From positions 2,258-66,257 of IMG/VR virus record IMGVR_UViG_3300045936_000225: a DNA stretch of 64,000 bases; one strand, 5' to 3'. Under the pieces are notes generated by a model. The model was not told the origin of the DNA. It saw only the letters and a list, made by a program, of their open reading frames with translations, and made no database searches. Shown here one piece after another: positions 31,331 through 52,380 of this stretch. Position numbers and translations under genes: made by a program. The DNA is from a virus. The stretch's first letter is position 1, and each line of letters begins with the position of its first letter.

Positions 31331-31487
31331 CATCCTCCGCCTCGACGGGAGGCGGACCCTTCGTTGGTGGCTTGATGATGCGACCTTCGTCATCCATCAT
31401 CGGAGCCGACTTGATCATGTACCACGTCACGAAGATCATCACAACGATGACGATCGACGCGCCCACAGCCAACAGGCCGCGGATCAT
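31299..31487 (-). CDS. small N-terminal-TM protein with Pro-rich tail, translationally coupled to the SPFH gene
   Basis: ATGA overlap with the SPFH stop. TM segment LLAVGASIVIVVMIFVTWYMI, then KPPTKGPPPVEAEDVKPPEPPAAA. Confidence 0.4.
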   Translation of the reverse strand: MIRGLLAVGASIVIVVMIFVTWYMIKSAPMMDDEGRIIKPPTKGPPPVEAEDVKPPEPPAAA

Positions 31488-33492: not shown

Positions 33493-33695
33493 CAGACCCT
33501 CTGGCGGTATTCTTGATACATCTGGATTCGATCATCCAGAATCGCGTCCTTGCCCTGAGCCAGCCGCGCTACGACGTCAGCGAGGTCCAAGGCAGATCTG
33601 TACCGCCTTCCCTTGGCTTGCTCCCATTCAAGCTGTTGCTTCAGTCTTAACACCTCGGCCTTATGCTCTTCAATTGGAATCGTGTCATTGCTCAT
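33492..33695 (-). CDS. small hypothetical protein
   Basis: Coupled overlaps with neighbours. Confidence 0.35.
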   Translation of the reverse strand: MSNDTIPIEEHKAEVLRLKQQLEWEQAKGRRYRSALDLADVVARLAQGKDAILDDRIQMYQEYRQRV

Positions 33696-34576
33696 GATAT
33701 GTCATCCTTGTCTCGGAACCACTTGAAGATCGGCTGGCGCGGCTTCTCTTTGACGCCTGTCACCGCGAAGTGCTTGAAGGTGAACAGCCGTCCGAGGTAC
33801 TTGTCGCGGTTGTCCCAGACTTCCCTTCTGAGAGCGTCGTCAAAGCCGCTGCCGACGTCGACCTCTCTGCCGCTTTTGGTTCTGGCAATGAGAGAGCCAA
33901 GCGTGTCTTTGCCGACCATGTTCTCTTTGTGGCCAGAACGCTTCGTATAGCCTCGCTCATCTTTGAACGCTTCGTTGGCATTGTGCATCTGCTCCTTGAA
34001 GCCGATGATCGTGGCCTCTTCATCCACCCACTGCTTCAGCTTCATGAGGTACTGCTCCCTCATGGTGCTGCGGCCATTCTTGTATGGTGCAGAACCGGAA
34101 CGAGCGATCACGCCCTCGAAACCATGCAGAAGAGCTTCGCGTTCGTATGCCTCCAGCTCTTCCACGCTGTTCACTATCTCCTGAAGGAGCAATGCGACGC
34201 TTGGGAATTTCGAATCCCAGACGACGCGCTCCAGGTGCCCGTATCGCCGCGTGAATGGTGACTTGGCTTGAAGCTGATAGTCGAAGACGTGGAAGGTGAC
34301 GTCAGGCTCGCCTTCGATGCTCATGACGCCGCTGGACGTCTTCTGCATCAGATTCTTGTCATTGATCGGCCCGACGCAGAGCTCGCCATCAAACCCTTCG
34401 GGAAGTCCCTTGAAGAGCTCCTGCGTGAACTTGTTGCGGATCGGCTTCAGGCTGCGACTCAGCAGCTGGCCGCCCTGCACGGTTGCTCGGATGCCATCAA
34501 GCTTGTAGCTGACGTACAGAGGAAAGCGCAGCACCTTAAGATCTTCAATGGTGGCTGCGAGCATTGGCTTGAGCAT
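33692..34576 (-). CDS. ATP-dependent DNA ligase
   Basis: KxDG adenylation motif (SYKLDGIRA), FDGELCV, EGVIAR and LMKLKQW motifs. 294 aa, T7-ligase size. Confidence 0.85.
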   Translation of the reverse strand: MLKPMLAATIEDLKVLRFPLYVSYKLDGIRATVQGGQLLSRSLKPIRNKFTQELFKGLPEGFDGELCVGPINDKNLMQKTSSGVMSIEGEPDVTFHVFDYQLQAKSPFTRRYGHLERVVWDSKFPSVALLLQEIVNSVEELEAYEREALLHGFEGVIARSGSAPYKNGRSTMREQYLMKLKQWVDEEATIIGFKEQMHNANEAFKDERGYTKRSGHKENMVGKDTLGSLIARTKSGREVDVGSGFDDALRREVWDNRDKYLGRLFTFKHFAVTGVKEKPRQPIFKWFRDKDDIS

Positions 34577-34911
34577 CAGATCATCCTCGCGAAATCTGGT
34601 TTCGGTGCATCTTCACCCTTGGTGATTCGATGCTCCTTGATCCTGTCACACTTTTTCGCGAGCGTATTCATGAACATCTTGTACATCTTCAGGTCAACCA
34701 ACCTGGCTGATGCTTCGCGAAATCCTTGGCGGCCAGACTCAATGCAGCCTAGTTGAAGCGCATTCTTCAGAGTTCGATTCTCCTGCATCAGCGCTTCTTT
34801 AAGAGCTTGATCGCCCTGCACTTTCTCAATGATATGCGTTCCCACCGCTCGATGGGTGTGCATAATCATGTTGTAGACGGCTGTATCGCCAGCCCAATAG
34901 ATCTCGATCAC
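34576..34911 (-). CDS. hypothetical protein
   Basis: ATGA coupling. Confidence 0.4.
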   Translation of the reverse strand: MIEIYWAGDTAVYNMIMHTHRAVGTHIIEKVQGDQALKEALMQENRTLKNALQLGCIESGRQGFREASARLVDLKMYKMFMNTLAKKCDRIKEHRITKGEDAPKPDFARMI

Positions 34912-35258
34912 AGCATCTCCGGAAACCCGTTCTTCACGGATACCTCGTTGAACTTCTCGCGCACTGCTTCGGCGAGATTGATCCCCTCCCGCTGCGCGAT
35001 CAGGTCGAGATAGAGGTAGACGTCAGCAATCTCCTTGCGGAGTTCGACGCGCAGCTCTTCCTCGGAGACTGTGTTGCCGACAAGACCATCGCGCACGCGA
35101 TTGAGCTTCTTGACGACGTTGCAGAGCTCGCCGGCCTCGCCTGCCAATGCAACTGCCCAGTCCGACAGGGACCATTCAACGAGCCCATCCGGATGCCAGC
35201 GAAGACAACGAGCCAGATTGACGCGACTGATGTTTGCGATTGAGTCGTTGTTCACCAC
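34908..35258 (-). CDS. MazG-like NTP pyrophosphohydrolase (second copy)
   Basis: EAGELCNVVKK ... EIADVYLYL motifs. Confidence 0.55.
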   Translation of the reverse strand: MVNNDSIANISRVNLARCLRWHPDGLVEWSLSDWAVALAGEAGELCNVVKKLNRVRDGLVGNTVSEEELRVELRKEIADVYLYLDLIAQREGINLAEAVREKFNEVSVKNGFPEML

Positions 35259-38628: not shown

Positions 38629-39149
38629 GGTGAACCTTTCCTAAGCGCCGGCCCGCTAGGCCACGCCGGAGGCTGAGTTTTCTGACTAAATACGCGCTGC
38701 CACAGCTCCGGGAGGCCCGCTACGGCGTATCCCGCCTTCAACTCCTTCCTAGTCATCCCCCGGGAAGGCGTGACAACGGCTTGCAGCGTAGGCGCGGCGG
38801 CTACCGCCGGCCCGCGCGCGTGCAAGACCTTCGGAATATCCTTGCCTGGAATGAGATACCATTGACCTAGCGTGTCCTTCGCTACGACATAGCTGCGGCC
38901 TCCATGAATGGCTATGCTCATGTGCCACTTAGGTTGATCCTTCTCGAAGGTGTCGTTCTTGATGATCGGTGTAGTGGCCATAACCGGCACGATCAGGTGC
39001 TTCGTCTCGAACCAGACGGTCTGTCCTTGGCTGAGAAGGTGTAGATCGGCAGTTCCGCTGCCGAGGCCATTCTCGATGCGCTCCATACGAATGCCATACG
39101 GCTTCGTGCGTTTGAGCTCATCGTAGACTTTCTGCTCAGGCTTGCGCAT
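38625..39149 (-). CDS. VRR-NUC (PD-(D/E)xK) nuclease
   Basis: GTADLHLL ... TVWFETKH motif. ATGA-coupled to the helicase. Confidence 0.5.
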   Translation of the reverse strand: MRKPEQKVYDELKRTKPYGIRMERIENGLGSGTADLHLLSQGQTVWFETKHLIVPVMATTPIIKNDTFEKDQPKWHMSIAIHGGRSYVVAKDTLGQWYLIPGKDIPKVLHARGPAVAAAPTLQAVVTPSRGMTRKELKAGYAVAGLPELWQRVFSQKTQPPAWPSGPALRKGSP

Positions 39150-41965
39150 CAGAACTTGAATCCGTCGTTGAGCTCTGGACGCGTCAGGCAGCGGAGCCTG
39201 CTGATGCTAATCATTGAGAAGTTCTGGAGATACTTGCCACGAATTAGCAGCCAGTCCTTGCCGTCCAGGAGGTTATCTGCAGCATACTTGCCCGCACCCT
39301 CCCAGTTATATGTCTTGATGCGCGCAAGAATCGGTTTGCTGACGCTGTCGTCAACTACGAACATGTCGAGGAACAGAGACTGGGTTGATCCGTCGCGGCC
39401 CATGTACGCCTTGTTGCCGCGACGCTGGAAGCGGACCGCTTCATTCTCGTCACGACGCTCGCGGCGGATCAGTTTGGCGATAACGACAGCCTCCTCTCCG
39501 TCCTTCAGCTTGCCGATCAGTTTGACCTTGCCACGGATGCCGTGCAGCTCAGGATTGGCATAGACAGCGCCCCACAACTTCTTGCCTTCCTCCAGATCTC
39601 GAAACCGGATCTCTGAGGACAGCAGCTTCTTGCGATCCACGTCGGTCAGTTGACCAGCTTTGCGTCGCGCGAGGTACTGGCCTGCTTTTGCAGGTCCGAT
39701 TCCCTTGATGTTCTGGTAGCCGCCATACAGCACGCCATCACGAACGCTCCATCCTGCATCGCTCTTGTCGGGATCGAAGGCCACGTAACTGATGCCTTCG
39801 TCACGAAGCTCTCGAAGCATCTCGATAACTTGCTCGTCATCCTTGGCGTTGCTAAGCAGTGCCGCTGCATACTGGAGTGGCCAACGTGCCTTCACGTATG
39901 CAGTCCAGTAAGTGACGATGCCGTAACTGACAGCATGGGCGACGTTGAAGAGCCAGGAGCCGGCGAACACCATCTGCCGCCAGATTTCGCGCGCAGCGTC
40001 CTCGCCGATCACGTCGTTGGCGCCTGCCGTGAACTTGTCACGCATCGAGTCGAAGTACTCCTGACCCTTGCGGCCAGACATCGACTTTCTGATCTCAGCA
40101 ACGTCCTTCCATGACATCTTGCCGATCTCTCGGCAGATGAACATTACCTGTTCTTGCCAGACGATAACGCCAAACGTGTCACCCGTATATCGACGAACTT
40201 CCTCTGGGACTCCGGACTCCCAGCTTTCTTGACCACCCATCCGCTTGATATAGTTGTTGGTGCCGCCGGAGGCCAAGGCACCTGGACGAGCAAGGCCGCC
40301 GATATGGGCGATCTGCATGAAACTGGTAACGGGGATCTGCTTCGCAACACGTCGAGCAGCAGCTCCTTCAAGCTGGAAGAGTCCAGAGAACTTGCCGCTA
40401 TTGATGACATCGAATGCCTCCTGGGAGTCCAGCTTGAGGTCGTAGAACTCCTGGTTGCTCATGACGCCACACTCCTCCAGCACTCCGAGAGTGCGTAGTC
40501 CGAGTGCGTCGATCTTGAGCAACTCCAGGTACTTGACGTCCTCCTTGGTCAAGCAGGCGACGCCTTCTGAGTTCACCGTGCAGTAGTGATGGATCGGCTC
40601 GTCGTTAACGAGCACTCCTGCAGCGTGGACCGACGTCGTGAACGGCGTCTGCTCAGCGCGGCCGACGACGGCCATTTCTGGGAATTCGCTCGCGAACTTC
40701 TTGCCCTCTGCCGTCTGGATCATCGTGTCTTCCAGAGCGAATCCGTATCGCGAGTCGCCGGAGGAGTACTCGATCAGTTGGTTGAGGAGATTGAAGGTCT
40801 TGTACTTCGGAACTCCCATCTTCATGCCGCATGTCGTGAGCACACTTCGCGGCTGCATCGTCACGACGTTGCCGAGTCGAGCGACGTGCTCCTCGCCGTA
40901 CTTCTCGCGAAGGTACTCGAATGCCATTTCGCGTCTGACGTCAGAGAAGTCAGAGTCGACGTCAGGCGGGTCGGAGCGCGTCACATCGATGAAGCGCTCG
41001 AACAGAAGGTCATGCTGGAGCGGGTCGATCTCCGTGATCTGCAGCACGTAGCAAACCAGTGATCCGCTCGACGATCCGCGGCCAGGACCGACGAGCATCT
41101 TCGTCTTCGCATACCGCATCAGGTCGCCGACGATGAGAAAGTAGCTGTCGAAGCCCTTCTCGCCGATCATCTTGCGCTCGTATTGCAGACGCTTCTCGTG
41201 CGCATCGGTCCAGACGATGTGGCCGCGACCGATGCGGTATTGCTTGCCCGCCTCGATTTCGGCGTCTAGGTCGCCGGCAAACTCTGGCAGCTTGCCGCGC
41301 GGCAGCTTCAATCCCTTGACCCTCTCCGCAGCCTCGTAGGTGCCCTTGATGGCAGCGCGCAGGATGTCAGTCGGCAGGTGGTTCATAACCACCAGAATCT
41401 CTTGCTCGCTCAGTAGCCATTGAGGCGTGGTGCGCTTTTGGTCAACTACGGCGAGGTGGAAGTCCCAGTCCTCCCTTCTCGCGAAGAAGTTGTCGCTGGT
41501 CAGCACGAGAGGCTTGCCAGTCTTCTTGTACAGCTCCAGCTGCTGCCTCGCCGCGACCAAACTTCTCGGATTGAAGTCGATGTAGTCGAATGCTGACGGG
41601 TCATCGAGGTTCGGGCCAGAGAAGACGACCGCTGAATCACGCAGTTTGCGCAAATCGCTTTGGTGAATATCAACAGGATGCGCGCTCGTCCAGGTGTAGA
41701 AACCCTTGAGGTCAGTAGCGAGAGCCCAGACACCTTGAGCGACACCGTCTACCATCGTGACTGGGAATTCCATGCCAAAGGCAGGGATCACCGACTTGCC
41801 CTTGAGCTCCTTCTCCCAAGTGACATGACCCCATGTTCCCGTATCGACGAGACCTGCAACCGGCGTCTGCAGTTCCTCCAGCCGCTCCACGAGATCAGAA
41901 ATGTGGCCGGTTGCTTTCTTGATGCTGAAATTGCTGCGCACCCGCAGCTGAGGGAATCCTGTCAC
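39149..41965 (-). CDS. dnaE: DNA polymerase III alpha-like (DnaE family) catalytic subunit
   Basis: N-terminal PHP domain. Palm and fingers motifs (LLKIDALGLRTL, GLFQLEG, WQEQVMFI). 938 aa. Confidence 0.85.
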   Translation of the reverse strand: MTGFPQLRVRSNFSIKKATGHISDLVERLEELQTPVAGLVDTGTWGHVTWEKELKGKSVIPAFGMEFPVTMVDGVAQGVWALATDLKGFYTWTSAHPVDIHQSDLRKLRDSAVVFSGPNLDDPSAFDYIDFNPRSLVAARQQLELYKKTGKPLVLTSDNFFARREDWDFHLAVVDQKRTTPQWLLSEQEILVVMNHLPTDILRAAIKGTYEAAERVKGLKLPRGKLPEFAGDLDAEIEAGKQYRIGRGHIVWTDAHEKRLQYERKMIGEKGFDSYFLIVGDLMRYAKTKMLVGPGRGSSSGSLVCYVLQITEIDPLQHDLLFERFIDVTRSDPPDVDSDFSDVRREMAFEYLREKYGEEHVARLGNVVTMQPRSVLTTCGMKMGVPKYKTFNLLNQLIEYSSGDSRYGFALEDTMIQTAEGKKFASEFPEMAVVGRAEQTPFTTSVHAAGVLVNDEPIHHYCTVNSEGVACLTKEDVKYLELLKIDALGLRTLGVLEECGVMSNQEFYDLKLDSQEAFDVINSGKFSGLFQLEGAAARRVAKQIPVTSFMQIAHIGGLARPGALASGGTNNYIKRMGGQESWESGVPEEVRRYTGDTFGVIVWQEQVMFICREIGKMSWKDVAEIRKSMSGRKGQEYFDSMRDKFTAGANDVIGEDAAREIWRQMVFAGSWLFNVAHAVSYGIVTYWTAYVKARWPLQYAAALLSNAKDDEQVIEMLRELRDEGISYVAFDPDKSDAGWSVRDGVLYGGYQNIKGIGPAKAGQYLARRKAGQLTDVDRKKLLSSEIRFRDLEEGKKLWGAVYANPELHGIRGKVKLIGKLKDGEEAVVIAKLIRRERRDENEAVRFQRRGNKAYMGRDGSTQSLFLDMFVVDDSVSKPILARIKTYNWEGAGKYAADNLLDGKDWLLIRGKYLQNFSMISISRLRCLTRPELNDGFKF

Positions 41966-42273
41966 TTTGGAATCTCCACGTGATGAACGTAATTGCGCAG
42001 GCGCTTGATCTTGCCTGTCACGTGCCTAGCGATCTCAGTATCAGACAGGAATGGACTCTTGACATTCTCTCTGAGCACGAGGAATGCGGCCGAAAGATCG
42101 CCGAGTTCCTTCGCCAGCGAGGTGATGTTCTTCTCCATCGACACCGGGTGATACGATCGAAGACCGTGCCTCTGGATCTTGGCGATTGCCTGGATGACCT
42201 CCGCGCACTCTTCCGCGACGATCACGAGGGCTTCCATCTCCGCTGGCGTCAGTTCGTTGAATTGTTCCATCAC
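41962..42273 (-). CDS. MazG-like or all-alpha NTP-PPase-like protein (third copy; tentative)
   Basis: EECAEVIQAIAKI ... ELGDL motifs. Confidence 0.4.
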   Translation of the reverse strand: MMEQFNELTPAEMEALVIVAEECAEVIQAIAKIQRHGLRSYHPVSMEKNITSLAKELGDLSAAFLVLRENVKSPFLSDTEIARHVTGKIKRLRNYVHHVEIPK

Positions 42274-42950
42274 GCCCTCGAAGTACGAACTTGAGTGGTG
42301 CCATCCACGACGCTCTTGTCGAAGCCGATCTTACGCGGCTCACCATACCCGGTTGGCCTGCAGAGTTCGGGCGGTCTAGTGCCATCAGGGATCAGTGACA
42401 CCAGCTTGTGGTGCTTCACGATCTCTGCGAGCGCCCTGACGTCGTCCATGCCACGGTGAGTCTGTTTGTATTCCTTGCCTGTGGTCGCCTTGTACAGCTC
42501 GATGAGCTTCATTCGGCGACCCCAGAGCGGGTCGAATTCCTGGACGGTACAGATGTTGTGGCGCGGCCACGGGAAGTCCTTGCAACCGCATCGCTCCAGC
42601 TCGCCGGCGAGCAATGCATGGTCGAAGGGAAGGTTGTGGCAGATCAGGCCGTCGGTGTCCTCGAAGAAAGCGATGATCTCGTCAAGGTGAGCTGCGAAAG
42701 CAGGCTTGCCGGCGAGATCGGCGTTCGTGATCCCGGTAATCCCGGTGATCTCAGGCGTGATCTGCTGTCCCGGATAGCACAGAAACTCCAACTCCGCGAG
42801 CTCGTTGCCGAACACGTCGACCTTCAAAGCCGCGAATTCAATGATGCGCGGCTGCAGGTCCTGCTTCGCATACGGATGCAGGGTCAGCCCTGTGGTTTCC
42901 GTGTCGAATATGATGGCCGTTTTGACGGCTGCGTCAACGATCGAATTCAT
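42270..42950 (-). CDS. dnaQ: DnaQ-like 3'-5' exonuclease (DEDDh)
   Basis: Exo I IIFDTETTGL, Exo II HNLPFDHALL, Exo III HRGMDDVRAL. ATGA overlap defines the start. Confidence 0.8.
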   Translation of the reverse strand: MNSIVDAAVKTAIIFDTETTGLTLHPYAKQDLQPRIIEFAALKVDVFGNELAELEFLCYPGQQITPEITGITGITNADLAGKPAFAAHLDEIIAFFEDTDGLICHNLPFDHALLAGELERCGCKDFPWPRHNICTVQEFDPLWGRRMKLIELYKATTGKEYKQTHRGMDDVRALAEIVKHHKLVSLIPDGTRPPELCRPTGYGEPRKIGFDKSVVDGTTQVRTSRA

Positions 42951-44653
42951 CGACGAATCCTCTTGCTGTGACGAGTCCACAAGACTGCTCCGTCCCAGAT
43001 ATGGTCGGCGCCCCATTCGTCTGCGCTGGCTAGATCTGGGAAGAATCCGCTTCCGTTTTTGTTGGCCGAGGTATTGCACAGGAGGCCTGGACCGCCGCTC
43101 GCAGCCGCATAACCTTGGAGGATCGAACGGACGATTGCACAGTCCGAAAATCCGACCGTCTGGATCCTGGCAGTATTGTCGATGTGCGTGATAGCAGGGA
43201 ATTTACCTGCGCATTCCGGCCTGATGACGTGGTCGAACAGCATGTATGGGTCCGGCGTCCCAGGATGGAAGAGAGCAGGTGCATCTTCTTCGAGGACAAT
43301 CGGCGCCACAGGTCTCCAGTGTTCACGGTTCTTGTCCATGTTGAGGGTGTTCTTGTTGGGGGACTCTGTAGCAGCCATCAGCAGGCTGCGATGACCGAGT
43401 GCACGCGGCCCGATCTCTGCCCGGCCATGAAGCACGCAAACGTAATCGTCCGGATGCTCCCAGAGCCAGCGCCCGAGTTCGTGCGGCTGCATCGGAGTCT
43501 TCGTAAACTTCGGATGCGCGCTGTACGGCATCTGGTCAACAACCAGCTGAGCAGGCGACATACGCGGCCCGCAGTACACGTCCCAGTCAAGCGCCGTCTT
43601 CTCGCCAGCAGCCCATCTGGCCGCAGCTGCTGCACCGATGGCGCTGCCCGAGTCATTCGGGCAAGGAGGAACCCAGACGTCGATGTCCATGCGCCGGATC
43701 TGGCTGTTCCACTTAATGTTCAAGGCCGAGCCGCCGACGAACACGAGGTTCATCGTTTTGCCATGTTTCTCCAGCCCTTCGACGATCTTGTCGCCCATCC
43801 ACTGATGGATGCTGCGAAGTAAATCTGCATCAGTGATGCTCTCTTCCGCTGTCGCGTAGAGAACGAGCTGCATGAAGGCATTCTCCGGCCTGCAGTCATT
43901 AAATGCGCTTTCCACTCGCTTGTCTGGATAGACTTCCGGTCTGCGCCCATCACTAAGGATGTGATGAGCGTTCTCGCAAGCCTGCAGGACTGCGTCAGAA
44001 ACCTTGCCGTGACCGATCCATGACATCAGCTTGCCTGGCCAGTCGCGACGACTGATCGACTTTGTGTAATCGCCGTGACGAAGGCGCTCCATGCCTGCTG
44101 TCTTGAAAGGTCCTGCATAGTATCCCATGATGCCATACAGCGTGCCGTACAGGTTGAAGAGGGCTTTGCCGCCGGTGATGCCTTTCTGAGGATCCACCTG
44201 ATAGAGCATCGGACGCGTTCCGCCGTCCCACATCAGGACGTCGCAGCGCTCTCCCGCGTATGGCGACATTAGGTACGCACCAAGTACGTGACCCGTGATA
44301 TGCGGCGTACTGCCAACGACCGTACCGAGATCTAGGCGCAGAGTCTCGCGCGCGAAGTTCGATAGCGTGACGAACTGGAATTCGATGTCTGGCCAGTAGC
44401 CTGCAACGTCCAGCTCGATTGGCCGGAAGAGCTTGCCGGCACGCCATCCGTCGATGCACAGAACGTCGCTGTTGTGGAACTCGAATCCCTCGCTGTCCAG
44501 CGCTTTGCGCACGGCAGAAAGCGATTCCGCCTCTGTGTACCGAGGATTGTTGCCGAATTTCTCCAATTCCAGGCTCCACTGGAGCTTGCCGGTTGCGTCG
44601 ATCATCGCCACTGCGGCATCATGCGTGAACTTCACGCCAACAAAACGAGTCAT
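42947..44653 (-). CDS. NodU/CmcH-family carbamoyltransferase
   Basis: N-terminal FTHDAAVAMID (HDxA motif of the Kae1-like domain), C-terminal HIDNTARIQTV (as in HVDGTARVQTV), ~570 aa. GAGGTG Shine-Dalgarno. Confidence 0.7.
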   Translation of the reverse strand: MTRFVGVKFTHDAAVAMIDATGKLQWSLELEKFGNNPRYTEAESLSAVRKALDSEGFEFHNSDVLCIDGWRAGKLFRPIELDVAGYWPDIEFQFVTLSNFARETLRLDLGTVVGSTPHITGHVLGAYLMSPYAGERCDVLMWDGGTRPMLYQVDPQKGITGGKALFNLYGTLYGIMGYYAGPFKTAGMERLRHGDYTKSISRRDWPGKLMSWIGHGKVSDAVLQACENAHHILSDGRRPEVYPDKRVESAFNDCRPENAFMQLVLYATAEESITDADLLRSIHQWMGDKIVEGLEKHGKTMNLVFVGGSALNIKWNSQIRRMDIDVWVPPCPNDSGSAIGAAAAARWAAGEKTALDWDVYCGPRMSPAQLVVDQMPYSAHPKFTKTPMQPHELGRWLWEHPDDYVCVLHGRAEIGPRALGHRSLLMAATESPNKNTLNMDKNREHWRPVAPIVLEEDAPALFHPGTPDPYMLFDHVIRPECAGKFPAITHIDNTARIQTVGFSDCAIVRSILQGYAAASGGPGLLCNTSANKNGSGFFPDLASADEWGADHIWDGAVLWTRHSKRIRR

Positions 44654-44943
44654 TTGGTCACCTCTTCCAGCATCGCCGAGTAGACCATCGCGTCGTGCGC
44701 ACTGTCCTTGTGGCCGCCGCGATGGAGGTTGTTTGAGTAGCGCTGAAGCTTGAGCAATGCTGCCAGCCACAGCGAGAAACGGTTCCAGTCATCCGCCGTC
44801 TTCAAGTCCGGCAAGCCGTCTGGGAAGAACGCCTGCAGGATGGCTCCGAGTTGCAGGTAAGTGTCGCCATACGCCGCGTTGCGCACGCGGAATGTAGCTG
44901 CGCCTTCTTCCAGAATCTCAGGAGCGCGTCGTTCTTCAGTCAT
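44650..44943 (-). CDS. hypothetical protein
   Basis: ATGA-coupled upstream of the carbamoyltransferase. Confidence 0.4.
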   Translation of the reverse strand: MTEERRAPEILEEGAATFRVRNAAYGDTYLQLGAILQAFFPDGLPDLKTADDWNRFSLWLAALLKLQRYSNNLHRGGHKDSAHDAMVYSAMLEEVTK

Positions 44944-45442
44944 TGTAATGCCCATCCCCGTCCAACGAACGGTGAGTTGTATTGACGCCAAATTCCGATG
45001 CGTACATGTTCAGGATGTCCAGGCGGTCGTCATATGCCATATGAATTTGACCGCAAATACCGAGGAGTCGGCGCATCATGTCGCGCTTCACTTCAACGCT
45101 TGAACGCGAATCGTAATTCGCGCGCATCCAGATGTGGTCGGGCGAGGGTCGTTTCCCGTGCTTCACGAACCACTTCACGCGAAGACGACGATACGCCTCC
45201 GGCATGGCCGTGAAGAAGTAGACGTCGTACCTGCGCCGAACATCGTCCTTCAGTTCCTCGATGAAATCGGCTTTATCACCGACGCAAGCGAGATGGTACA
45301 TGTGATATCTGGCCCAGTCTTGCTTGTACGGCGACTGATCCTTCGGGAGGATCAGGTACTGCCTGTGCGTGTCCAGACTGATACAGTTGTCGATGTCGCA
45401 TACGATGACGCGACGCTTCGGCCAGTGAGGGCGATTACTCAT
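44936..45442 (-). CDS. HAD-superfamily phosphatase-like protein (tentative)
   Basis: VIVCDIDNC (DxDx motif I), FFTAMPE, KWFVKHG, MAYDDRLD. Confidence 0.35.
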   Translation of the reverse strand: MSNRPHWPKRRVIVCDIDNCISLDTHRQYLILPKDQSPYKQDWARYHMYHLACVGDKADFIEELKDDVRRRYDVYFFTAMPEAYRRLRVKWFVKHGKRPSPDHIWMRANYDSRSSVEVKRDMMRRLLGICGQIHMAYDDRLDILNMYASEFGVNTTHRSLDGDGHYND

Positions 45443-45698
45443 TGTTCGGGATGCCTGCCGCAAATAGAGCAGCTTTGCCAAGGGCAGCTGCGTCAATTCG
45501 TTCCTGAGAGGTCGTGGCATTAAGCATCGCGACGATTGCGCGAGCCATTACAGGCGCTGCGGCCATACCGACGATCTCTGCGGGTTTGCCGTCTTTGCCT
45601 TGCATCGCGAGAACTCGGGTCTGTTTAAAGATCCCAAGAATCCGCGAGTCTTTGCCCAAAGGCTTGACGTCGTAAGCAGCCGAGTGTCGGCTGCTCAT
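45435..45698 (-). CDS. hypothetical protein
   Basis: ORF only. Confidence 0.4.
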   Translation of the reverse strand: MSSRHSAAYDVKPLGKDSRILGIFKQTRVLAMQGKDGKPAEIVGMAAAPVMARAIVAMLNATTSQERIDAAALGKAALFAAGIPNNE

Positions 45699-45728
45699 GC
45701 GTAGCTCTTCATCTTATCTCTCCGAAGA

Positions 45729-45750
45729 GGCCGGGAGCCCACTCCCGGCC
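45729..45750 (-). terminator. hairpin after the SSB gene (9-bp GC stem ggccgggag/ctcccggcc)
   Basis: Followed on the - strand by U-rich tcttcggagagataag. Confidence 0.5.
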
Positions 45751-45794
45751 CATCTGCTATTATAGCTCCGTCTTAGCGCACGCGCTACGGCGCA

Positions 45795-46226
45795 TTAGAA
45801 CGGGATGTCGTCATCGAAGGTGTTCGAGTGTCGCTGCTGAGAAGGACTAGAAGCCCTTGCACCCGGCGCGCGGTCCCTACTACCGCCGCCACCGGCTGCA
45901 CGGCTCTCGCCGCGCTCCTTCGGCTTGCCCTGCAGAGTAACCTGAGCAACGTTCAGCTTGATCGCGGCATCAAACGTGCCGTCCCGCTTCTCGAACGTCT
46001 CCAGGTCGATCTCGCCGCAGACCGTGACGGGCGTGCCCTGGAGCAAGTACTGCGCGAGCTTCTCGCCGCGCTTGCCCCAGAGGGCGCACTTGATCCAGAG
46101 CGTATGCTCGCGGTCTCCATATCCGGCCTTGACGCCGAGGCTGAAGTTCGTGACGCCGCTCTCGCCGATGTTGGGTTTGTATTCGGCATCCTGGCCGAGA
46201 TAGCCTGCGAAGTGTCCGTAGTTCAT
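45795..46226 (-). CDS. ssb: single-stranded DNA-binding protein
   Basis: OB-fold pattern and the C-terminal acidic tail DDDIPF. GGAGA Shine-Dalgarno. Confidence 0.85.
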   Translation of the reverse strand: MNYGHFAGYLGQDAEYKPNIGESGVTNFSLGVKAGYGDREHTLWIKCALWGKRGEKLAQYLLQGTPVTVCGEIDLETFEKRDGTFDAAIKLNVAQVTLQGKPKERGESRAAGGGGSRDRAPGARASSPSQQRHSNTFDDDIPF

Positions 46227-46660
46227 TTGATCTCCGTGGTTTTCTCTTCGCTGGTCGGGCCTGACTGCGGATAACAGCCATTCTCGCCTGGAAAGGAAAT
46301 GCTGCCGATGGCCTTGGTGCGCACTTCGGTGTTGCGGAACACCAGCTCGAAGCATTCCTTGTAGGTCTCGGCACGGGCGACGGCGACTTGCTTCGCAGTA
46401 TCAAGTTCCTGCTGCTTGTTAATGGAGAGGCCGAGCTTGTTGAGTGCGTCCTGAGCCAGGACCTTCGACTCCTTTGCCTGTTGAGCTTCTGGACTCAGGC
46501 GCTGAATTTCGCGACGAGCCTGATCGAGCTCGGAGGTCAGCTGACGAGCCTTCTCCTTGAGCGCCTGGATGCCAGCGAGCGCGTCTACGCTGAACGTGCT
46601 CTTCTGGATCAGGTCCTGGATTGCCGCCTCGAGAGGCGACGCGGTTGCTTGTTCTGCCAT
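46223..46660 (-). CDS. coiled-coil hypothetical protein
   Basis: ATGA-coupled. Confidence 0.45.
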   Translation of the reverse strand: MAEQATASPLEAAIQDLIQKSTFSVDALAGIQALKEKARQLTSELDQARREIQRLSPEAQQAKESKVLAQDALNKLGLSINKQQELDTAKQVAVARAETYKECFELVFRNTEVRTKAIGSISFPGENGCYPQSGPTSEEKTTEIK

Positions 46661-46661
46661 G

Positions 46662-47378
46662 TTACTTTACTCCTCGCATCTTGTCGACGATCTTCAGGAG
46701 CTTCCCGCGCGTGAGCAGATCAGGGAAGTGCTCGAGAGCGAATGCCTCGATCTCTGCGAAATAGTCGCGCGGCTTCTCGAAGATGAAGTCCTCTGCCCAA
46801 GGCCACACCTTCAGGACTTCGTCAACCATCAGGTTCATCACCATCTGATATTCGTCTTGGGTGCGGCCACCGGTGCGCGATCTCGCGAGATCAGCGAATG
46901 AGCGAAGATTGTACTTCGCCACGATGTTCGTCTCGACATTGCCGGGTAGTACTGCACGAGCATCTTCCGGTGCATGGCCGCGACGGATCAGATACTTGTA
47001 GAGCTCCTGCGTGCGAGCGTTGTGGTCATTGACCACCTCCGTCGCCGAAATGTCCTCCTTGAACTTCCTCGGCATGACGAATCCGAACTGCGACATGTCA
47101 TTCACGCGCATCGACTGCTGCGCATATGACGCGTGCCTCGAACGCACGAACTGATGCGTGAAGTTGCGGCTCACACCCTCGATCATGAAGATCAAGTCGC
47201 CGAACTCGTGTGAAGAGCGGATGGTGTTGGCGATGTACTTCAGCTCTTCGAGCTTGCGCTCTTCTGGCCAAGCACGGATGGCGTCGAGCAATCCAGGCGA
47301 CATGTTGAGTCGCGTGCTCTTGGTGAAGATGAGGATTTCCTTGGCCTCATGCGTTGCGTAAATGAGTGTGACTTTCAT
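46662..47378 (-). CDS. thyX: flavin-dependent thymidylate synthase
   Basis: ThyX signature RSRHASYAQQSMR (RHR-x7-S). AGAGGAAA Shine-Dalgarno. Confidence 0.8.
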   Translation of the reverse strand: MKVTLIYATHEAKEILIFTKSTRLNMSPGLLDAIRAWPEERKLEELKYIANTIRSSHEFGDLIFMIEGVSRNFTHQFVRSRHASYAQQSMRVNDMSQFGFVMPRKFKEDISATEVVNDHNARTQELYKYLIRRGHAPEDARAVLPGNVETNIVAKYNLRSFADLARSRTGGRTQDEYQMVMNLMVDEVLKVWPWAEDFIFEKPRDYFAEIEAFALEHFPDLLTRGKLLKIVDKMRGVK

Positions 47379-48295
47379 CGCGACAGTTTCCTCTGATATT
47401 TGTCGCCCGACATGAGCGACTTGATTGCGGCGATATCGCCGATAAGATCGTCGAGCAGGATGTTCCTCCAAGTGGCGAACCTGCCCAGCGAATAGATGTT
47501 GAATTCTTCAGATAGCCGGTGGATTCCCTCGCGGCGACGCTTGTCATCGATCGGCGCGATCTTGCCGTATTTCTGGAACGTGTCCGTCTGCAGGATGAGG
47601 CCGCGAATGCCGAATACCTGTTCCAGGAACTCAGCTTCGTCAGTCTTCTCGAAGGCGCTGCTCGCAGTCGTCTCCGGAATGACACTCTCGGCGATCAAGG
47701 TGTTTCCTGTGATCGTCGCTCGATACAGCGTCAACTTCGGGTCCGGGAAGTAGATCGTCTGGAAAGTGTCGCAGTCAGGGATCTTGTATCGTCGCACCTG
47801 GATAGGTGCGAAATTGAAGTTCTGGCCGACGATCTCGAGATTGAAGTCACCGAGCGCGGCCAGGAGCGTCGGCATCGGTATCGTCGAGACTACCGGAAGT
47901 CCTGATCGCCATCCATCAAACGTCGATCCCCAGACAACGCGGTCGCCGACATTCTCAAGCAGCCGCGCGACGAGATCGTCTGGGGCGACGTAACGCTCGG
48001 CAGGCTCAAGGTTCCAGATGCTGCGATCTATGATGCGCCCGGCCACCTTATAGGCATAGCGATTGGCGTGCCGAATGCTCGGCTCCACGAACATGCCGCC
48101 AGAATAGATCGCCTTCCGCACTGTGATCTTGCGGAATGGAATGCCTGTGAGCGCACTGACCTGTTCTCCACGAAATCTCAGCACGGCCTTGTGATTGTCG
48201 CGTGCAGTGGGCGATGCCTCGTGTATCTTCGCCTTTGGCCATGCGTGCGCAGCGATCAGCCCCGACAATCCTGCGCCGATAATGATTGGTGTCAC
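47375..48295 (-). CDS. FAD/NAD(P)-binding Rossmann oxidoreductase
   Basis: N-terminal IIIGAGLSGLIAAH (GxGxxG). ATGA-coupled to thyX. Confidence 0.55.
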   Translation of the reverse strand: MTPIIIGAGLSGLIAAHAWPKAKIHEASPTARDNHKAVLRFRGEQVSALTGIPFRKITVRKAIYSGGMFVEPSIRHANRYAYKVAGRIIDRSIWNLEPAERYVAPDDLVARLLENVGDRVVWGSTFDGWRSGLPVVSTIPMPTLLAALGDFNLEIVGQNFNFAPIQVRRYKIPDCDTFQTIYFPDPKLTLYRATITGNTLIAESVIPETTASSAFEKTDEAEFLEQVFGIRGLILQTDTFQKYGKIAPIDDKRRREGIHRLSEEFNIYSLGRFATWRNILLDDLIGDIAAIKSLMSGDKYQRKLSR

Positions 48296-48296
48296 T

Positions 48297-48731
48297 TTAC
48301 TTCCTCTGCGGAGGTTTCCGCATCTTCATCACGAAACGTCGAATTCGCTCCAACTCGTCCAGGTACTGCGTGTGCTTGACGTCGCAGAAGAAGAAATCGT
48401 CCGCACACTCTATTATATACCAACAGGCCGCAACTACCTTACTTGCTTCCTGTGCGCGCCCAACGATACTGGCGAGTTGGACCTTAATCGGCTGAGGGAA
48501 GTCGCGCTCCGCGAATTCGGCGCAAACCTCACCGATCGTCTTGATGTAGTGAGCAAGCGCCTCGACCTTGAGAAACTTGCAGTTTGGGTCGCCATGCTTG
48601 CGACACTCCGCTTCGAATTCACGAAGCAGATCCTCGTCAAACATGTCCTCGACCTCGACAGGCGTGTCCCGTTCGATGGCCACCTCGATGGCGGCATCAA
48701 CGTAGACTTCTATCGATTCCTTGATGTTCAC
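48297..48731 (-). CDS. hypothetical protein
   Basis: ORF only. Confidence 0.45.
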   Translation of the reverse strand: MNIKESIEVYVDAAIEVAIERDTPVEVEDMFDEDLLREFEAECRKHGDPNCKFLKVEALAHYIKTIGEVCAEFAERDFPQPIKVQLASIVGRAQEASKVVAACWYIIECADDFFFCDVKHTQYLDELERIRRFVMKMRKPPQRK

Positions 48732-50275
48732 TTAAAGTCCCCGCTATCAAAGGGTTCTTCGGTTGACTTGCGCTTGCGGTGAATCACTTCACCTTTGAGC
48801 ACTTCGTTGCGGATCTCTGCCGCAGCCCAAGTGTGCATATGCTCTCCGCCTGGCAAGATGTAGACTGATTCCTGGCCATTCTCGGCGCTGAACTGGACCT
48901 TGTTCTTCGTGGGCTTGGCTTTCGCCATGGACGCTGCGAAGCGCAATTGCTCCGGAGTCATCTTGAAGCCCTCATCTGAATCGAAGGTCTGGCAGATCAT
49001 GAGCCGGAAAACTGAACGTTTGATCGCCCTGGAAGGCCACTCCTTGGCGATGTGAATGGCAGCCACCACATACTCTGGCAGCGCCCTCTCGTGCATCTCA
49101 GCTGTGCCCTTGGATGAAGGTGCACGGCCAGTCGCATCAAAGGCCGAGATATCAATCTCGTTGAGGAACTGGTAAGCTGCTGTCAGGAAATCTGGATTCT
49201 GAAGCGCTGTGTACAGCCGATCGTAGTATTCCCTGCCACCCGGATGCGGCGTCAGAGGATTATCAATCACATACACGCGGCGATCGTTCGGCTCAACTGC
49301 GATGGCACCCGGCTTGTTGGTTGCGCCGATCTTGTGAGCGAAGTTACCGATCGTGAACTGCTCGCCGCCCTTCGGCTCCAGTACGATCATTTCCTCGGTA
49401 ATGAACTGGTGGAAGTTCTCCTTGTTCGAGAACTTCTCGCTCACTTCTTCAGCAAACAGGAAGCGAGCGAACATGCGCCTACGATTGAACTTCTGGGCGT
49501 AGATCTGCTCGAATGTGCCCGTACAGATGACCTGAGCAGGGAACATCCGTTGAAGGAATCTCCCGATCCAGCCGCGCCCAACGCCGTCGTGCGGCGTCGA
49601 ATGAAACAGCAGCCAGTTGACTCGCTCCTCCGGTTTCTGGATTGAGTGAGCCAAGAACTGCAAATGAATGCGAGTCGGCTCGTTCTCCATGCACAGGAAC
49701 TTTAGGTGATCCACGAACATCTTGATGTGTGGAAAAGCGATCTCAGGGGCGAGCTTTTCCTGTAAGGCGTAAGGAGAAGGCTTACAGGAATTGACGCAAG
49801 GTTCAAGGTTGGCGTTGGTGAAGAATGGAAAAGAGTGTGCAGGCGCGAAGTCGTATTTTGTGACAGTTCGTCGAATTGGAGACTGGGACCAGATTGGGAA
49901 CAGCGCCATGAGGCGGAGGCGGTTCGGCGCTCCTTCCGCGTTGTTCGGGTTGTCCCGGTCCCTTGTGACCTTGGATGCCGCGAGGGCATTCTCCATCGCA
50001 GAATACGTGCGAAATAGTCCGGTACGAAGATCAAGGAACTTGTCCGATTCTTCAACATACACGAACCTCTCGTTCATTTCCTGTTCACTGGAGAATATCA
50101 CAGGAAGAGCTGAATCCTTTGCTTCCTCCATCTCCTGATGAAGACGTTCCTCGGCACTAAGTGTGGTGCCTTCGGCGTTGCGTGCCTTCACCTCAATCAT
50201 CCGGACGTATTCCTCGACCGTCGATTCCTTGACGGGACCGTCGTCCCCTAGCAACTCATCAAGTATATCACCCAT
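48728..50275 (-). CDS. replication-associated protein (primase partner; no P-loop seen)
   Basis: 515 aa, ATGA-coupled downstream of the primase. Confidence 0.4.
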   Translation of the reverse strand: MGDILDELLGDDGPVKESTVEEYVRMIEVKARNAEGTTLSAEERLHQEMEEAKDSALPVIFSSEQEMNERFVYVEESDKFLDLRTGLFRTYSAMENALAASKVTRDRDNPNNAEGAPNRLRLMALFPIWSQSPIRRTVTKYDFAPAHSFPFFTNANLEPCVNSCKPSPYALQEKLAPEIAFPHIKMFVDHLKFLCMENEPTRIHLQFLAHSIQKPEERVNWLLFHSTPHDGVGRGWIGRFLQRMFPAQVICTGTFEQIYAQKFNRRRMFARFLFAEEVSEKFSNKENFHQFITEEMIVLEPKGGEQFTIGNFAHKIGATNKPGAIAVEPNDRRVYVIDNPLTPHPGGREYYDRLYTALQNPDFLTAAYQFLNEIDISAFDATGRAPSSKGTAEMHERALPEYVVAAIHIAKEWPSRAIKRSVFRLMICQTFDSDEGFKMTPEQLRFAASMAKAKPTKNKVQFSAENGQESVYILPGGEHMHTWAAAEIRNEVLKGEVIHRKRKSTEEPFDSGDFK

Positions 50276-51258
50276 CAGCGACCCCAGGATTCGTTGGCGA
50301 CGTTGAGATCCTCAACGCAGCGCTCATTTAGCAGCTCGGTTAGGTCAGCCCAGCGCCTCCCTTGGCAGTGGCCGTGGAAGCACTTGAAGGAACCGTAGAA
50401 CCGATTCTCTGCGGCCGGCTCGCGAATGTCAGCGCCGGTTTTATTGCCACCAGTATGTTCATCACCCCATGGACAGACTACTTCGCGCCAGCCACCCAGA
50501 TTAGGCTCGCTCTTGCGCGGAATGACACCCATGGCTCGACAAAGTCGAACAGTCAGATCGAATGCATCCCGACGAGCTGTTAGCTCCTCCTCGGAAATGT
50601 CCTCAGCGATCAATGGCCGCCGATACGTGGCGGCATAGTCAAGCTTCAGCTCCGCGGCGAGGTTCTGCCAGGACCACATCTTGCCGTCCTGCTTATTCCA
50701 GGTCACCCTGAAATCGCCGCCATACTTCGGCTTCGTGTTGCGGAATCCAGGAATGCGCACAACACGGTTCGTGCCCATCATACCTGGATCAATGCCTGCG
50801 GCATACCGATCAACGAATGATCTCTGCAGTGCTTCAAAGGTGCCTTGCGCGCATCCTGGCCGCAGGAGGTACCACCACTGCTGATTGCCGGGAGAGGTCT
50901 CGACAATCCACGTCGGTTCTACATGAGCGAACGTGTCGGGAAAGAGTTTGGCGCTTCCGCTGCTTCCGACGTCGTCGATGACGAACGCTCGAGCTGACTG
51001 GAATAATGCCTTCTGACGTCGAAAACTACCGTCTGGTGCCTTACCGAAGGTGCTGACGCAGACGTAGCCGTTGTGTTGAGTGTCGATCCTGAGCGGCGCA
51101 CCCGGCTTCCAAGGAATGGGGCGCCACCCTCTGTCTGAAGATCCTTCAGGATTGACAGGAATGTCTTGGAGAATGAATCGTTCAATTGGTGAGCATCCGC
51201 CTGTCTTGGCAGCCAGCTGCTCGAGAAATCTTATGGCCAGTGCTTCGTGGCTTTCCAA
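50275..51258 (-). CDS. DNA primase (prim-pol-like N-terminal domain + C-terminal zinc ribbon)
   Basis: AFVIDDVGS (hhhDxD), and CPWGDEHTGG ... FKCFHGHC zinc-ribbon typical of phage/plasmid primases. Confidence 0.55.
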   Translation of the reverse strand: MESHEALAIRFLEQLAAKTGGCSPIERFILQDIPVNPEGSSDRGWRPIPWKPGAPLRIDTQHNGYVCVSTFGKAPDGSFRRQKALFQSARAFVIDDVGSSGSAKLFPDTFAHVEPTWIVETSPGNQQWWYLLRPGCAQGTFEALQRSFVDRYAAGIDPGMMGTNRVVRIPGFRNTKPKYGGDFRVTWNKQDGKMWSWQNLAAELKLDYAATYRRPLIAEDISEEELTARRDAFDLTVRLCRAMGVIPRKSEPNLGGWREVVCPWGDEHTGGNKTGADIREPAAENRFYGSFKCFHGHCQGRRWADLTELLNERCVEDLNVANESWGR

Positions 51259-51423: not shown

Positions 51424-52380
51424 TCAGAACTTGTCGTCGTCCCCGGAGCTTGCAGCGCCGCCGGCTGAGCTACTACCCGACTCCGCGCCTGCAAGGTCAA
51501 CCTTGACCTCGTTGCCCTTCACCGAAGTGTAGAAGGCTGCACCCATGTCGAAGATCCACTTCTTCTGGACAGGGCCGTCGAGTGCCACGCTCACGCCGTA
51601 CCAGCTGCCCTGGTCATTCGACTCCTTGACCGTGGTGATGCGGTAGACGTAGCCGAACGTTGGCGCGATCGCCAAGGTGCCGGCGCCGGTCTTGATGGTA
51701 CGTTCCCGCATCATCGCGTTGAAGAGCTTGCTCTTCTTGATCTGCGTGGAAGCGAGGCTCATCAGCACGCGGCTCGGCAGCTGGTCAGGATCTTCCTCGT
51801 CGAGGATCAGGCCGTAGTGCAGCCGGTTGTCGGCGAGACGGTCGCACATGTCCTTGTCGACCTTGCCGTCCTTGATGTAGTAATCGCGGCCCTCGAAGCT
51901 GACAAGCTCGCCATTGTCACGCTGCCGCGCGACGTCGGCTTCGCTGACCTCGCCCTTGAAGCCGCCACCGGCCTTGCGCGCTCCCCAGCGAAGCAGCTTG
52001 CGCTCGAAGTAGCACGGGACGAACAGGAGTCCGGTCTTGCCGTCGTAGAGCTTGCCGGTCACGCTGTTGTACAGCTGGCCCTGCTTGGCCTCCTCGATGT
52101 ACTTGCCGTCCGATTCGTCCAGCTCCGGGCTGAGCGGCTGGAGGACCTTGAGGAATGGGATTGCGACATCGGCGCCGGACATCGCGTCGGTACCAGCACC
52201 TGCGTACTGGTCCATGCTGAACTGTTCAGCTGCTGCGACTGCCTGTGCAGCGGGTGGCGCCTGAGTTGCTACCGCCTTTGTGGGCTGGGCTGCCGGCTTG
52301 GCCGGTGCTGCTGGTTTTGCTACCGCCTTTGTGGGCTGGGCTGCCGGCTTGGCCGGTGCTGCTGGTTTTGCTGTTGCCAT
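51424..52380 (-). CDS. putative gp2.5-like ssDNA-binding/annealing protein with repeated AKPAAPAKPAAQPTKAV N-terminus (tentative)
   Basis: Acidic C-terminal tail ending SGDDDKF (cf. SSB DDDIPF). GGAGA Shine-Dalgarno. Contains the 2 x 51-bp tandem repeat. Confidence 0.4.
   Translation of the reverse strand: MATAKPAAPAKPAAQPTKAVAKPAAPAKPAAQPTKAVATQAPPAAQAVAAAEQFSMDQYAGAGTDAMSGADVAIPFLKVLQPLSPELDESDGKYIEEAKQGQLYNSVTGKLYDGKTGLLFVPCYFERKLLRWGARKAGGGFKGEVSEADVARQRDNGELVSFEGRDYYIKDGKVDKDMCDRLADNRLHYGLILDEEDPDQLPSRVLMSLASTQIKKSKLFNAMMRERTIKTGAGTLAIAPTFGYVYRITTVKESNDQGSWYGVSVALDGPVQKKWIFDMGAAFYTSVKGNEVKVDLAGAESGSSSAGGAASSGDDDKF
52268..52369 (-). repeat. perfect 2 x 51-bp tandem repeat encoding AKPAAPAKPAAQPTKAV x2
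   Basis: Read directly from the sequence. Confidence 0.85.

Follow-up and report, generated by a model that had tools for sequence, protein, structure and literature searches.

What does a carbamoyltransferase of the NodU/TobZ type act on when it is encoded in the middle of a phage replication operon? The question is raised by a 64,000-nucleotide stretch of viral DNA (positions 2,258 to 66,257 of IMG/VR virus record IMGVR_UViG_3300045936_000225), called the window in the following and used for all coordinates unless another locus is named. An earlier note, made from the letters of the sequence alone, had drawn attention to a gene for a 568-residue carbamoyltransferase (CT) and to its neighbors, which it read together as a candidate module for nucleotide or DNA modification. 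Our analysis leads to a tentative preference for a nucleotide-level acceptor, which would be a free (deoxy)nucleotide or nucleoside, or else nascent or single-stranded phage DNA. This acceptor is favored because the gene is placed exclusively and repeatedly in the replication operon and because a phage carbamoyltransferase for 5-hydroxymethylcytosine (5hmC), published in 2021, provides a precedent.

42947..44653, minus strand: carbamoyltransferase, 568 residues, TobZ/NodU/CmcH family, accessory gene (Pfam PF02543 and PF16861, phrog_1601)

Predicted activity of the carbamoyltransferase

The assignment of the protein to the NodU/CmcH family held up in searches of profile databases and PDB. Pfam recognizes both of its domains, Carbam_trans_N (PF02543; 3.5e-40, 138.9 bits, cutoff 24) and Carbam_trans_C (PF16861; 2.9e-35, 121.8 bits, cutoff 27), and the two motifs noticed earlier are present, THDAAVA in the N-terminal and THIDNTARIQTV in the C-terminal part. 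The protein matches phrog_1601 with 7.9e-56 and the NodU model collinearly from end to end (E 1e-114), and its 384.3 bits against the NodU equivalog NF041651 (cutoff 1000) place it outside NodU proper. Matches to PDB entries, namely 7xb6, TobZ, GdmN and NovN, are confined to the C-terminal half.

In an alignment of 23 sequences (A1), residues H11, D12, H118, H122, D334, K441, R443, H490, D492 and N527-T-S of the CT are invariant. The HxxxH and two Asp of the metal site are represented by H118 and H122 (PHITGHV), the near-invariant D143 (WDGG) and D334 (NDSGS), the last of which aligns with the Asp of ASDIG in TobZ. The carbamoyl-phosphate- and ATP-binding residues of the YrdC-like domain are likewise kept (GPRALG, K-x-R-E..RP.AP, H-x-D-x-T-x-R and NTS-x-N, aligned with TobZ and 7xb6 and invariant in A1). 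Because the metal-site and carbamoyl-AMP-forming residues of TobZ are retained, the CT, as judged from its residues, looks like an intact and working member of the NodU/TobZ family. For TobZ, in the work of Parthier et al. of 2012, and for the phage 5hmC enzyme, it is reported that carbamoyl-AMP is made from carbamoyl phosphate and ATP by the YrdC-like domain at the C-terminus, and that the Kae1-like domain at the N-terminus, which has a His-His-Asp-Asp metal site, then hands the carbamoyl group to a hydroxyl or an amine.

In the mechanism that we propose, the C-terminal domain of the window CT would form carbamoyl-AMP from carbamoyl phosphate and ATP, and a hydroxyl or amine of the acceptor would receive the carbamoyl group from the N-terminal Kae1-like domain. 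The product would be a carbamoylated nucleotide or base that the phage uses in replication, where it would most plausibly act as a shield against host nucleases.

Repeated entry of the gene into one operon

Homologues with 68-70% identity to the CT are encoded in syntenic contigs, and a broad further set has 34-46% identity. In the following, L001-L117 and L119 are labels of the relative loci that were fetched, and p followed by a number is a protein label. In all 21 non-redundant related phage loci with a CT gene (CT-positive loci), the gene is situated within the operon for nucleotide metabolism and replication. Four different junctions are used: between the genes of a flavoprotein and the thymidylate synthase ThyX, between those of a HAD-like protein and p113, between those of p113 and the exonuclease DnaQ, as in the window, and at DnaQ in the order DnaQ-CT. 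Insertion between the HAD and p113 genes separates what in PB1-like phages is a single fused gene. In a neighbor-joining tree of ThyX, CT-positive loci are scattered among CT-negative loci in at least eight separate places.

These data show that the CT gene is accessory, moves horizontally and has repeatedly come into the same operon. From the varied junctions and the scattered positions in the ThyX tree we infer repeated gain or exchange of the gene, together with selection that keeps it with the early genes for nucleotide metabolism and replication; its location could also have been favored by recombination between conserved flanks. The link to nucleotides that the earlier note had considered remains plausible, because the gene resides in the nucleotide-metabolism and replication operon of all 21 contigs.

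A precedent in phages

The earlier note knew of no phage DNA modification by a NodU-type enzyme. Such an enzyme had been published in 2021, a phage NodU-type 5hmC carbamoyltransferase that forms 5-carbamoyloxymethylcytosine (Yang et al. 2021, eLife 10:e70021; PMC8670742). It accepts 5hmC in single-stranded DNA and in RNA as well as free 5hmdCTP, and a dCMP hydroxymethylase of the ThyA family, PRA-PH and dCMP deaminase are found together with it (PMC8670742). A tblastn search with the verified enzyme recovered its clade, with gp39 of Xanthomonas phage Xp15 and proteins of Acinetobacter and Bacteroides phages; relatives of the window were not among the matches. The gene of Xp15 gp39 adjoins those of ThyA and dCMP deaminase and lies among replication and nucleotide genes. 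The 5hmC enzyme and the window CT have in common the two-domain NodU/TobZ-type architecture, the occurrence in tailed phages and the location among replication and nucleotide genes. Use of carbamoyl phosphate and ATP is expected of the window CT as well, and its genome also encodes MazG-like pyrophosphatases and an ATP-dependent ligase.

The acceptance of 5hmC in RNA by the 2021 enzyme also bears on another conceivable acceptor, RNA or protein, with the CT modifying a tRNA base in the manner of the Kae1/TsaD-YrdC system for t6A or a side chain in the manner of HypF. Modification of tRNA is the ancestral function of the fold family. However, the window contains no tRNA gene, nothing specific points to such an acceptor, and the substrates of the known two-domain enzymes of the NodU/TobZ type are small molecules or DNA, so that we regard RNA or protein as an unlikely target.

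Rival acceptors and the evidence against a nucleotide

Several observations, brought together in this section, weigh against a nucleotide-level acceptor. They concern the bacterial relatives of the CT, the genes that alternate with it and its distance from the verified 5hmC enzyme.

Bacterial homologues are encoded in non-ribosomal peptide synthetase (NRPS) or ATP-grasp natural-product clusters of Streptomyces and Chryseobacterium, the window CT being about 40% identical to the actinobacterial and Chryseobacterium homologues in NRPS clusters. The identity between phage and bacterial CTs (0.42) equals that among phage CTs (0.42); the two groups have 110 conserved columns in common, and clade-specific columns number only 3-4. 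No cultured isolate was found to carry a member of the CT clade, which occurs only on uncultured viral and metagenomic contigs. The earlier note had reckoned that closest homologues of the sugar-modifying type, devoid of a nucleotide link, would speak against its proposal; half of this is what was found, in that the nearest cellular homologues lie in NRPS and ATP-grasp clusters. Features specific to the phage proteins are an insertion of eight residues at 193-200 and Y179, P206 and E257. As a clue to the acceptor, clade-specific residues proved uninformative, with 3-4 columns separating the phage from the bacterial clade. The bacterial members of the CT clade (L007, L008 and L119) form one tight group with 63% identity within the more diverse phage radiation (42%), and their genes lie in NRPS or ATP-grasp clusters.

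Further evidence comes from the slot between the p113 and DnaQ genes, which in about half of the CT-negative relatives contains genes for a classical short-chain dehydrogenase/reductase (SDR) and a vicinal oxygen chelate (VOC) protein of the Glyoxalase_4 type. An SDR gene is present in 3/21 CT-positive vs 42/78 CT-negative loci (Fisher p 0.001) and a VOC gene in 2/21 vs 40/78 (Fisher p 0.0004), relatedness of the loci being ignored in both tests. The pair is found, for example, at 11644-13113 of L006 and in about 40 of the loci L039-L117. A small Methyltransf_11 gene (150-190 codons) occurs in or near the operon of five CT-positive loci and 4/78 CT-negative loci; the test, run with 4/21 vs 4/78, gave p ~0.06. 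Since SDR, VOC and methyltransferase proteins are enzymes of the small-molecule type, the slot may serve metabolite rather than DNA chemistry. The methyltransferase genes of the CT-positive loci have the following positions.

L018, 6797-7324: Methyltransf_11
L021, 8729-9196: Methyltransf_11
L025, 9225-9803: Methyltransf_11
L010, 9420-9995: Methyltransf_11
L026, 1353-1928: Methyltransf_11

These findings make a non-nucleotide small molecule (a sugar, an amino-acid or peptide derivative, or an antibiotic) a serious rival acceptor, possible although in our estimate doubtful. According to this explanation, the CT gene has its position for no other reason than that it is co-expressed early and that conserved flanks make it easy to exchange; in one version, the alternating CT, SDR plus VOC, and methyltransferase genes neutralize DNA-targeting or other anti-phage natural products. 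It is favored by the cellular relatives in NRPS and ATP-grasp clusters, as close as other phage CTs, by the many shared and few distinguishing columns, by NodU being the best named family for the CT, and by the anticorrelation of the CT with the SDR and the VOC protein, the latter a member of the glyoxalase/bleomycin-resistance superfamily. The 'Nol-like carbamoyltransferase' genes of cyanophages and pelagiphages are also cited in its support. They are phage-borne and belong to the same PHROG as the window CT (phrog_1601), and the cyanophage CTs are thought to lie in secondary-metabolite-like clusters (PMC7824862). The cyanophage and pelagiphage proteins are, however, only 27-31% identical to the window CT over about 60% of the protein, and unlike the window CT gene those of the cyanophages do not adjoin genes for ThyX, DnaQ or PolIII.

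Arguing against a small-molecule acceptor is the placement of the gene within the nucleotide and replication operon of every one of the CT-positive phage loci, at four junctions and never elsewhere, and no sugar-, lipid- or antibiotic-handling partner gene adjoins it in the window. The O-carbamoyltransferases NodU, NolO, TobZ, CmcH, GdmN and NovN share the metal-site and carbamoyl-AMP-site residues with the window CT, which differs from the NodU/TobZ group in being encoded in a lytic-phage replication operon instead of a biosynthetic cluster and in being less acidic. The median net charge is -8 for phage CTs, -25 for the bacterial homologues, which makes the phage proteins markedly less acidic than natural-product-cluster enzymes, and -6 for the verified DNA enzyme. 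Taken as a proxy for DNA binding, the lower acidity would weakly favor a nucleotide acceptor.

The comparison with the 5hmC system adds to the evidence against a nucleotide acceptor. The window CT is 26% identical to the verified enzyme over 164 residues, and in a tree the verified enzyme groups with Xp15 gp39, distant from the window CT clade and as its outgroup. At the positions found to be discriminating by MetaGPA (TobZ W408/G421/R423), the window CT has V/G/R, as compared with W/G/R in TobZ, with which it agrees at two of the three, and I/C/T in the 5hmC enzyme, whose states were taken from one verified sequence. The partner in the window is ThyX and not a ThyA-type dCMP hydroxymethylase, and a scan of about 50 window open reading frames against Pfam and PHROG revealed neither a ThyA-type hydroxymethylase nor a TET/JBP protein, a DNA methyltransferase or a dCMP deaminase. 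A phmmer search with E. coli ThyA through all open reading frames of the fetched related loci found no ThyA homologue within 10 kb of the CT gene. RepB_primase contigs numbered 0/36 in the cytosine-modified set of MetaGPA (PMC8670742); because RepB_primase is a hallmark of the group, these phages as a whole do not look cytosine-modified. A ThyX specialized for CT-positive phages was looked for among 20 CT-positive and 70 CT-negative sequences; no column discriminates between them (maximum frequency difference 0.44), and identical ThyX motif strings occur in both kinds of phages.

At the level of sequence, the window CT clade is thus shown to be distinct from the 5hmC clade. Because no enzyme that forms a hydroxymethyl pyrimidine was found and the ThyX is ordinary, the route of the window CT is, as we infer, not the known 5hmC route. 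A hydroxymethyl route fed by ThyX is unlikely because the ThyX of CT-positive phages has no distinguishing residue.

That the CT is nevertheless a 5-hydroxymethylpyrimidine carbamoyltransferase like the 2021 enzyme, provided with its hydroxymethyl group by a ThyX of the R[T/S]R type (see below) or by an unrecognized enzyme, is the least probable of the explanations considered here. It would agree with the common superfamily and the Xp15-like genomic setting, with the exocyclic methylene intermediate of ThyX, which water could in principle trap (discussed in PMC8989533), and with the enrichment of Pfam Thy1 in the cytosine-modified contigs of MetaGPA (49 vs 275, p 1.8e-40; PMC8670742). It is contradicted by the passing of the curated thyX equivalog cutoff, by the ThyX motif strings common to phages with and without the CT, by the RepB_primase count and by the position of the window CT far outside the verified clade. 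A literature search on DNA modification in PB1-like phages or on ThyX-type hydroxymethylases found nothing relevant, either way. The same ThyX is encoded by hundreds of PB1-like isolates for which, to our knowledge, no base replacement has been reported, which also counts against this explanation.

Within the nucleotide-level reading that we tentatively favor, a more specific and improbable variant is that in phage DNA, or in the dNTPs from which it is made, the CT clade places the carbamoyl group on an acceptor that is not 5hmC; candidates would be an exocyclic amine, a hydroxyl of the sugar or a group derived from thymine. If this were true, it would be a second, chemically different carbamoyl modification of DNA, and the slot in which CT, SDR plus VOC, and methyltransferase genes alternate would be a hot-spot for the tailoring of nucleotide chemistry in PB1-like phages. 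Carbamoylated DNA has so far been the product of a single enzyme clade that depends on 5hmC. What is added here is a second large clade of phage CTs, so far seen solely on contigs of uncultured viruses and metagenomes. It has a different set of partners, in which no hydroxymethylase was found. Action of the CT on nucleotides would imply a new acceptor, a new modification of DNA or nucleotides and a new tool enzyme; action on a small molecule would imply an unusual recruitment of a natural-product-type tailoring enzyme by lytic phages.

The operon and its conserved core genes

The window is a tailed-phage genome, one half of which carries the large terminase, head and tail genes on the plus strand. 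A megablast search of the flagged region (42000-50300) against GenBank phages yielded no match. The CT gene is part of a single minus-strand string of genes that starts at about 51.3 kb and runs to 37.1 kb. Transcription proceeds from a RepB-type primase through a DUF5906 helicase-like protein, a 144-residue protein (p144), a 306-residue flavoprotein, ThyX, a 145-residue protein and a single-strand DNA-binding protein (SSB) to an 87-residue protein, a HAD-like phosphatase, p113, the CT, DnaQ, a MazG-like protein, PolIII-alpha, p174 (174 residues) and an SNF2 helicase.

48297..51258, minus strand: upstream end of the operon with the 144-residue protein, the DUF5906 helicase-like protein (Pfam DUF5906 1.9e-9) and the RepB-type primase (RepB_primase 3.2e-14)
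47375..48295, minus strand: FAD-binding flavoprotein with the fold of UDP-galactopyranose mutase (UGM), protoporphyrinogen oxidase (PPO) and amine oxidase (phrog_4828), ATGA-coupled to thyX
46662..47378, minus strand: ThyX, flavin-dependent thymidylate synthase, 238 residues, motif RSRHASYAQQSMR (Pfam Thy1 6.6e-33, TIGR02170)
46223..46660, minus strand: 145-residue protein, p145 (weak sub-threshold Pfam matches only)
45795..46226, minus strand: SSB (Pfam SSB 1.5e-12, phrog_44 6.6e-21)
45435..45698, minus strand: 87-residue protein, p87 (no Pfam or PHROG family match; conserved in L003 and L004)
44936..45442, minus strand: HAD-superfamily phosphatase, PNKP-phosphatase-like, about 168 residues, motif I DIDNC (phrog_415 E 2e-17)
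44650..44955, minus strand: p113, helical protein of 97-101 residues, DUF6378-like, ATGA-coupled to the CT gene (phrog_4889 positions 240-325, E 1.4e-15)
42270..42950, minus strand: DnaQ-like 3'-5' exonuclease, ATGA-coupled to the CT gene (Pfam RNase_T 3.5e-23, phrog_192)
41962..42273, minus strand: MazG-like nucleoside-triphosphate pyrophosphohydrolase (Pfam MazG 1.3e-4, 22.6 vs cutoff 22; phrog_4856 7.7e-20)
39149..41965, minus strand: DNA polymerase III alpha-like replicase, downstream end of the conserved operon (homology to phage PolIII-alpha)

The block of coupled enzyme genes between the DnaQ and primase genes is where it had been reported, on the minus strand, with the DUF5906 helicase and primase genes (48728-51258) upstream of the flagged block and DnaQ at its other end. 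Of the 15 operon junctions, 12 are overlaps of 4 or 1 nt or gaps of 1 nt. ATGA or GTGA overlaps are seen at DUF5906/p144, FAD/ThyX, p145/SSB, p113/CT, CT/DnaQ, DnaQ/MazG, MazG/PolIII and p174/SNF2, those at flavoprotein/ThyX, p113/CT and CT/DnaQ being ATGA specifically; the CT/DnaQ junction reads TCGATGAATT. The flagged genes are part of one long, translationally coupled early operon of a phage of the PB1-like supergroup. The earlier gene listing was incomplete in that it missed p113, encoded between the HAD and CT genes.

Conservation was surveyed in 80 IMG/VR loci centered on the flavoprotein. In 78/80 the order is flavoprotein-ThyX-(HAD)-p113-DnaQ-PolIII-alpha-p174-SNF2, without the CT. Pseudomonas phage SN, which is PB1-like, has genes for the flavoprotein, ThyX, polynucleotide kinase (PNK)/phosphorylase, exonuclease and polymerase in the same order and lacks the CT, and the arrangement in Ralstonia phage PY059YO380 is similar, again without the CT. 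The order of the PB1-like replication module (Pbunavirus ORF65 - ThyX - 'PNK/phosphorylase' - exonuclease - DNA polymerase) is thus common to the window, which differs from it in that the HAD and p113 portions, fused in one protein of the CT-less PB1-like isolates (phrog_4889), are split and that SSB, p87, p145 and the CT are added. PolIII-alpha is about 44% identical to that of Burkholderia, Luteibacter, Xanthomonas, Xylella, Serratia and Pbunavirus myophages. These data show that the operon genes other than the CT gene are conserved core genes of the phage group, for thymidylate supply and DNA replication. Since the flavoprotein, ThyX, HAD protein, p113 and SSB belong to the core of a large group of phages, an interpretation as partners brought in for the CT is untenable, and the grouping of five genes into one module was not borne out.

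A dedicated multi-step pathway in which the flavoprotein, ThyX, the HAD protein and the CT together synthesize a new modified nucleotide, as the earlier note had envisaged, is for these reasons very unlikely. The tight coupling of the genes would fit such a pathway, as would the location of the CT gene directly between those of the flavoprotein and ThyX or of the HAD protein and p113 in several relatives and the extra tailoring genes (methyltransferase, SDR) in some CT-positive loci. Yet 78/80 relatives keep the flavoprotein, ThyX, the HAD protein and p113 without the CT, some CT-positive loci, e.g. L025 and L006, show no ThyX or flavoprotein (some of them are truncated contigs), and ThyX does not co-vary with the CT. 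The analysis in this way corrects the reading of the neighbors of the CT and highlights the constant pairing of a UGM-like flavoprotein with ThyX.

ThyX, flavoprotein, HAD protein and p113

The identification of ThyX was correct, as the protein passes both Pfam Thy1 (114.5 bits, cutoff 24.8) and the equivalog TIGR02170 (92.9, cutoff 87.9), but the RHR signature ascribed to it was not. When aligned with ThyX of M. tuberculosis the motif is RSRHASYAQQSMR, in which Ser replaces the His of canonical RHR, while both Arg, both Ser and the final Arg of RHRxxSxxxxSxR are kept. Nearly all ThyX proteins of L001-L117 have R[T/S]R in place of RHR (47107-47145 in the window, ThyX residues 78-90), which makes this a property of the clade. 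A second motif variant in these loci is the change of an upstream THQ to AQQ.

For the flavoprotein, the coupling to thyX noted earlier was substantiated. Searches of Pfam, NCBIfam and PDB by sequence were all empty, and only the fold search was informative; the assignment comes from it, and the N-terminal GxGxxG and the two-domain fold are present. In comparison with UGM, PPO and renalase types the identity is 11-17%. The family phrog_4828 has more than 2,200 homologues and no Pfam family. In 79/80 related viral loci (L038-L117) the flavoprotein gene is directly upstream of the ThyX gene (46662-48295 in the window). So constant a partner of phage ThyX could be its reductase or have another role beside it.

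The HAD open reading frame comprises 44936-45520, with a start at 45442 being more likely. The expected DxDx motif is present as CDIDNC, and the protein matches phage 'polynucleotide kinase' families; its score with Pfam HAD_PNKP (PF25109), 23.1 bits, is below the cutoff of 27.6, and the orthologues in L005 and L006 are recorded with PF25109. The identification of SSB was correct.

The most constant neighbor of the CT is p113, present in 19/21 CT-positive and 69/78 CT-negative loci. Its counterpart in PB1-like phages is the C-terminal domain of their 'polynucleotide kinase/phosphorylase' (phrog_4889), and 15/22 members of the p113 family give weak matches to PF19905. An AF2 model is a four-helix bundle (pLDDT 78.6) for which Foldseek returned no significant fold match in PDB, and the protein has no recognizable catalytic motif. 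An assignment of p113 to MazG-like pyrophosphatases was considered and rejected: the EExxE/ExxD metal motif is missing, D80 and D84 are the sole conserved acidic residues, S-2L MazZ gives only TM 0.42 and E 8, no PDB profile matches, and there are weak DUF6378 matches only. L020 (11987-13474), L023 and L024 contain two paralogous p113/DUF6378-like copies with an SDR or VOC gene between them.

Further features of the window

Three distinct genes for MazG-like nucleoside-triphosphate pyrophosphatases are present in the window (41962-42273, 34908-35258 and 32516-32875). Farther downstream, the minus-strand string to which the CT gene belongs contains genes for an ATP-dependent DNA ligase with an OB_2 domain (33692-34576), a domain strongly enriched among the modified contigs of MetaGPA, and for an SPFH/Band-7 protein (31484-32488). 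At 52266-52372, in the gene of a Pam3_gp34-like protein, there is a perfect tandem repeat of 51 bp in 2.1 copies, by which an Ala/Pro/Lys-rich segment at the N-terminus of that protein, AKPAAPAKPAAQPTKAV, is duplicated.

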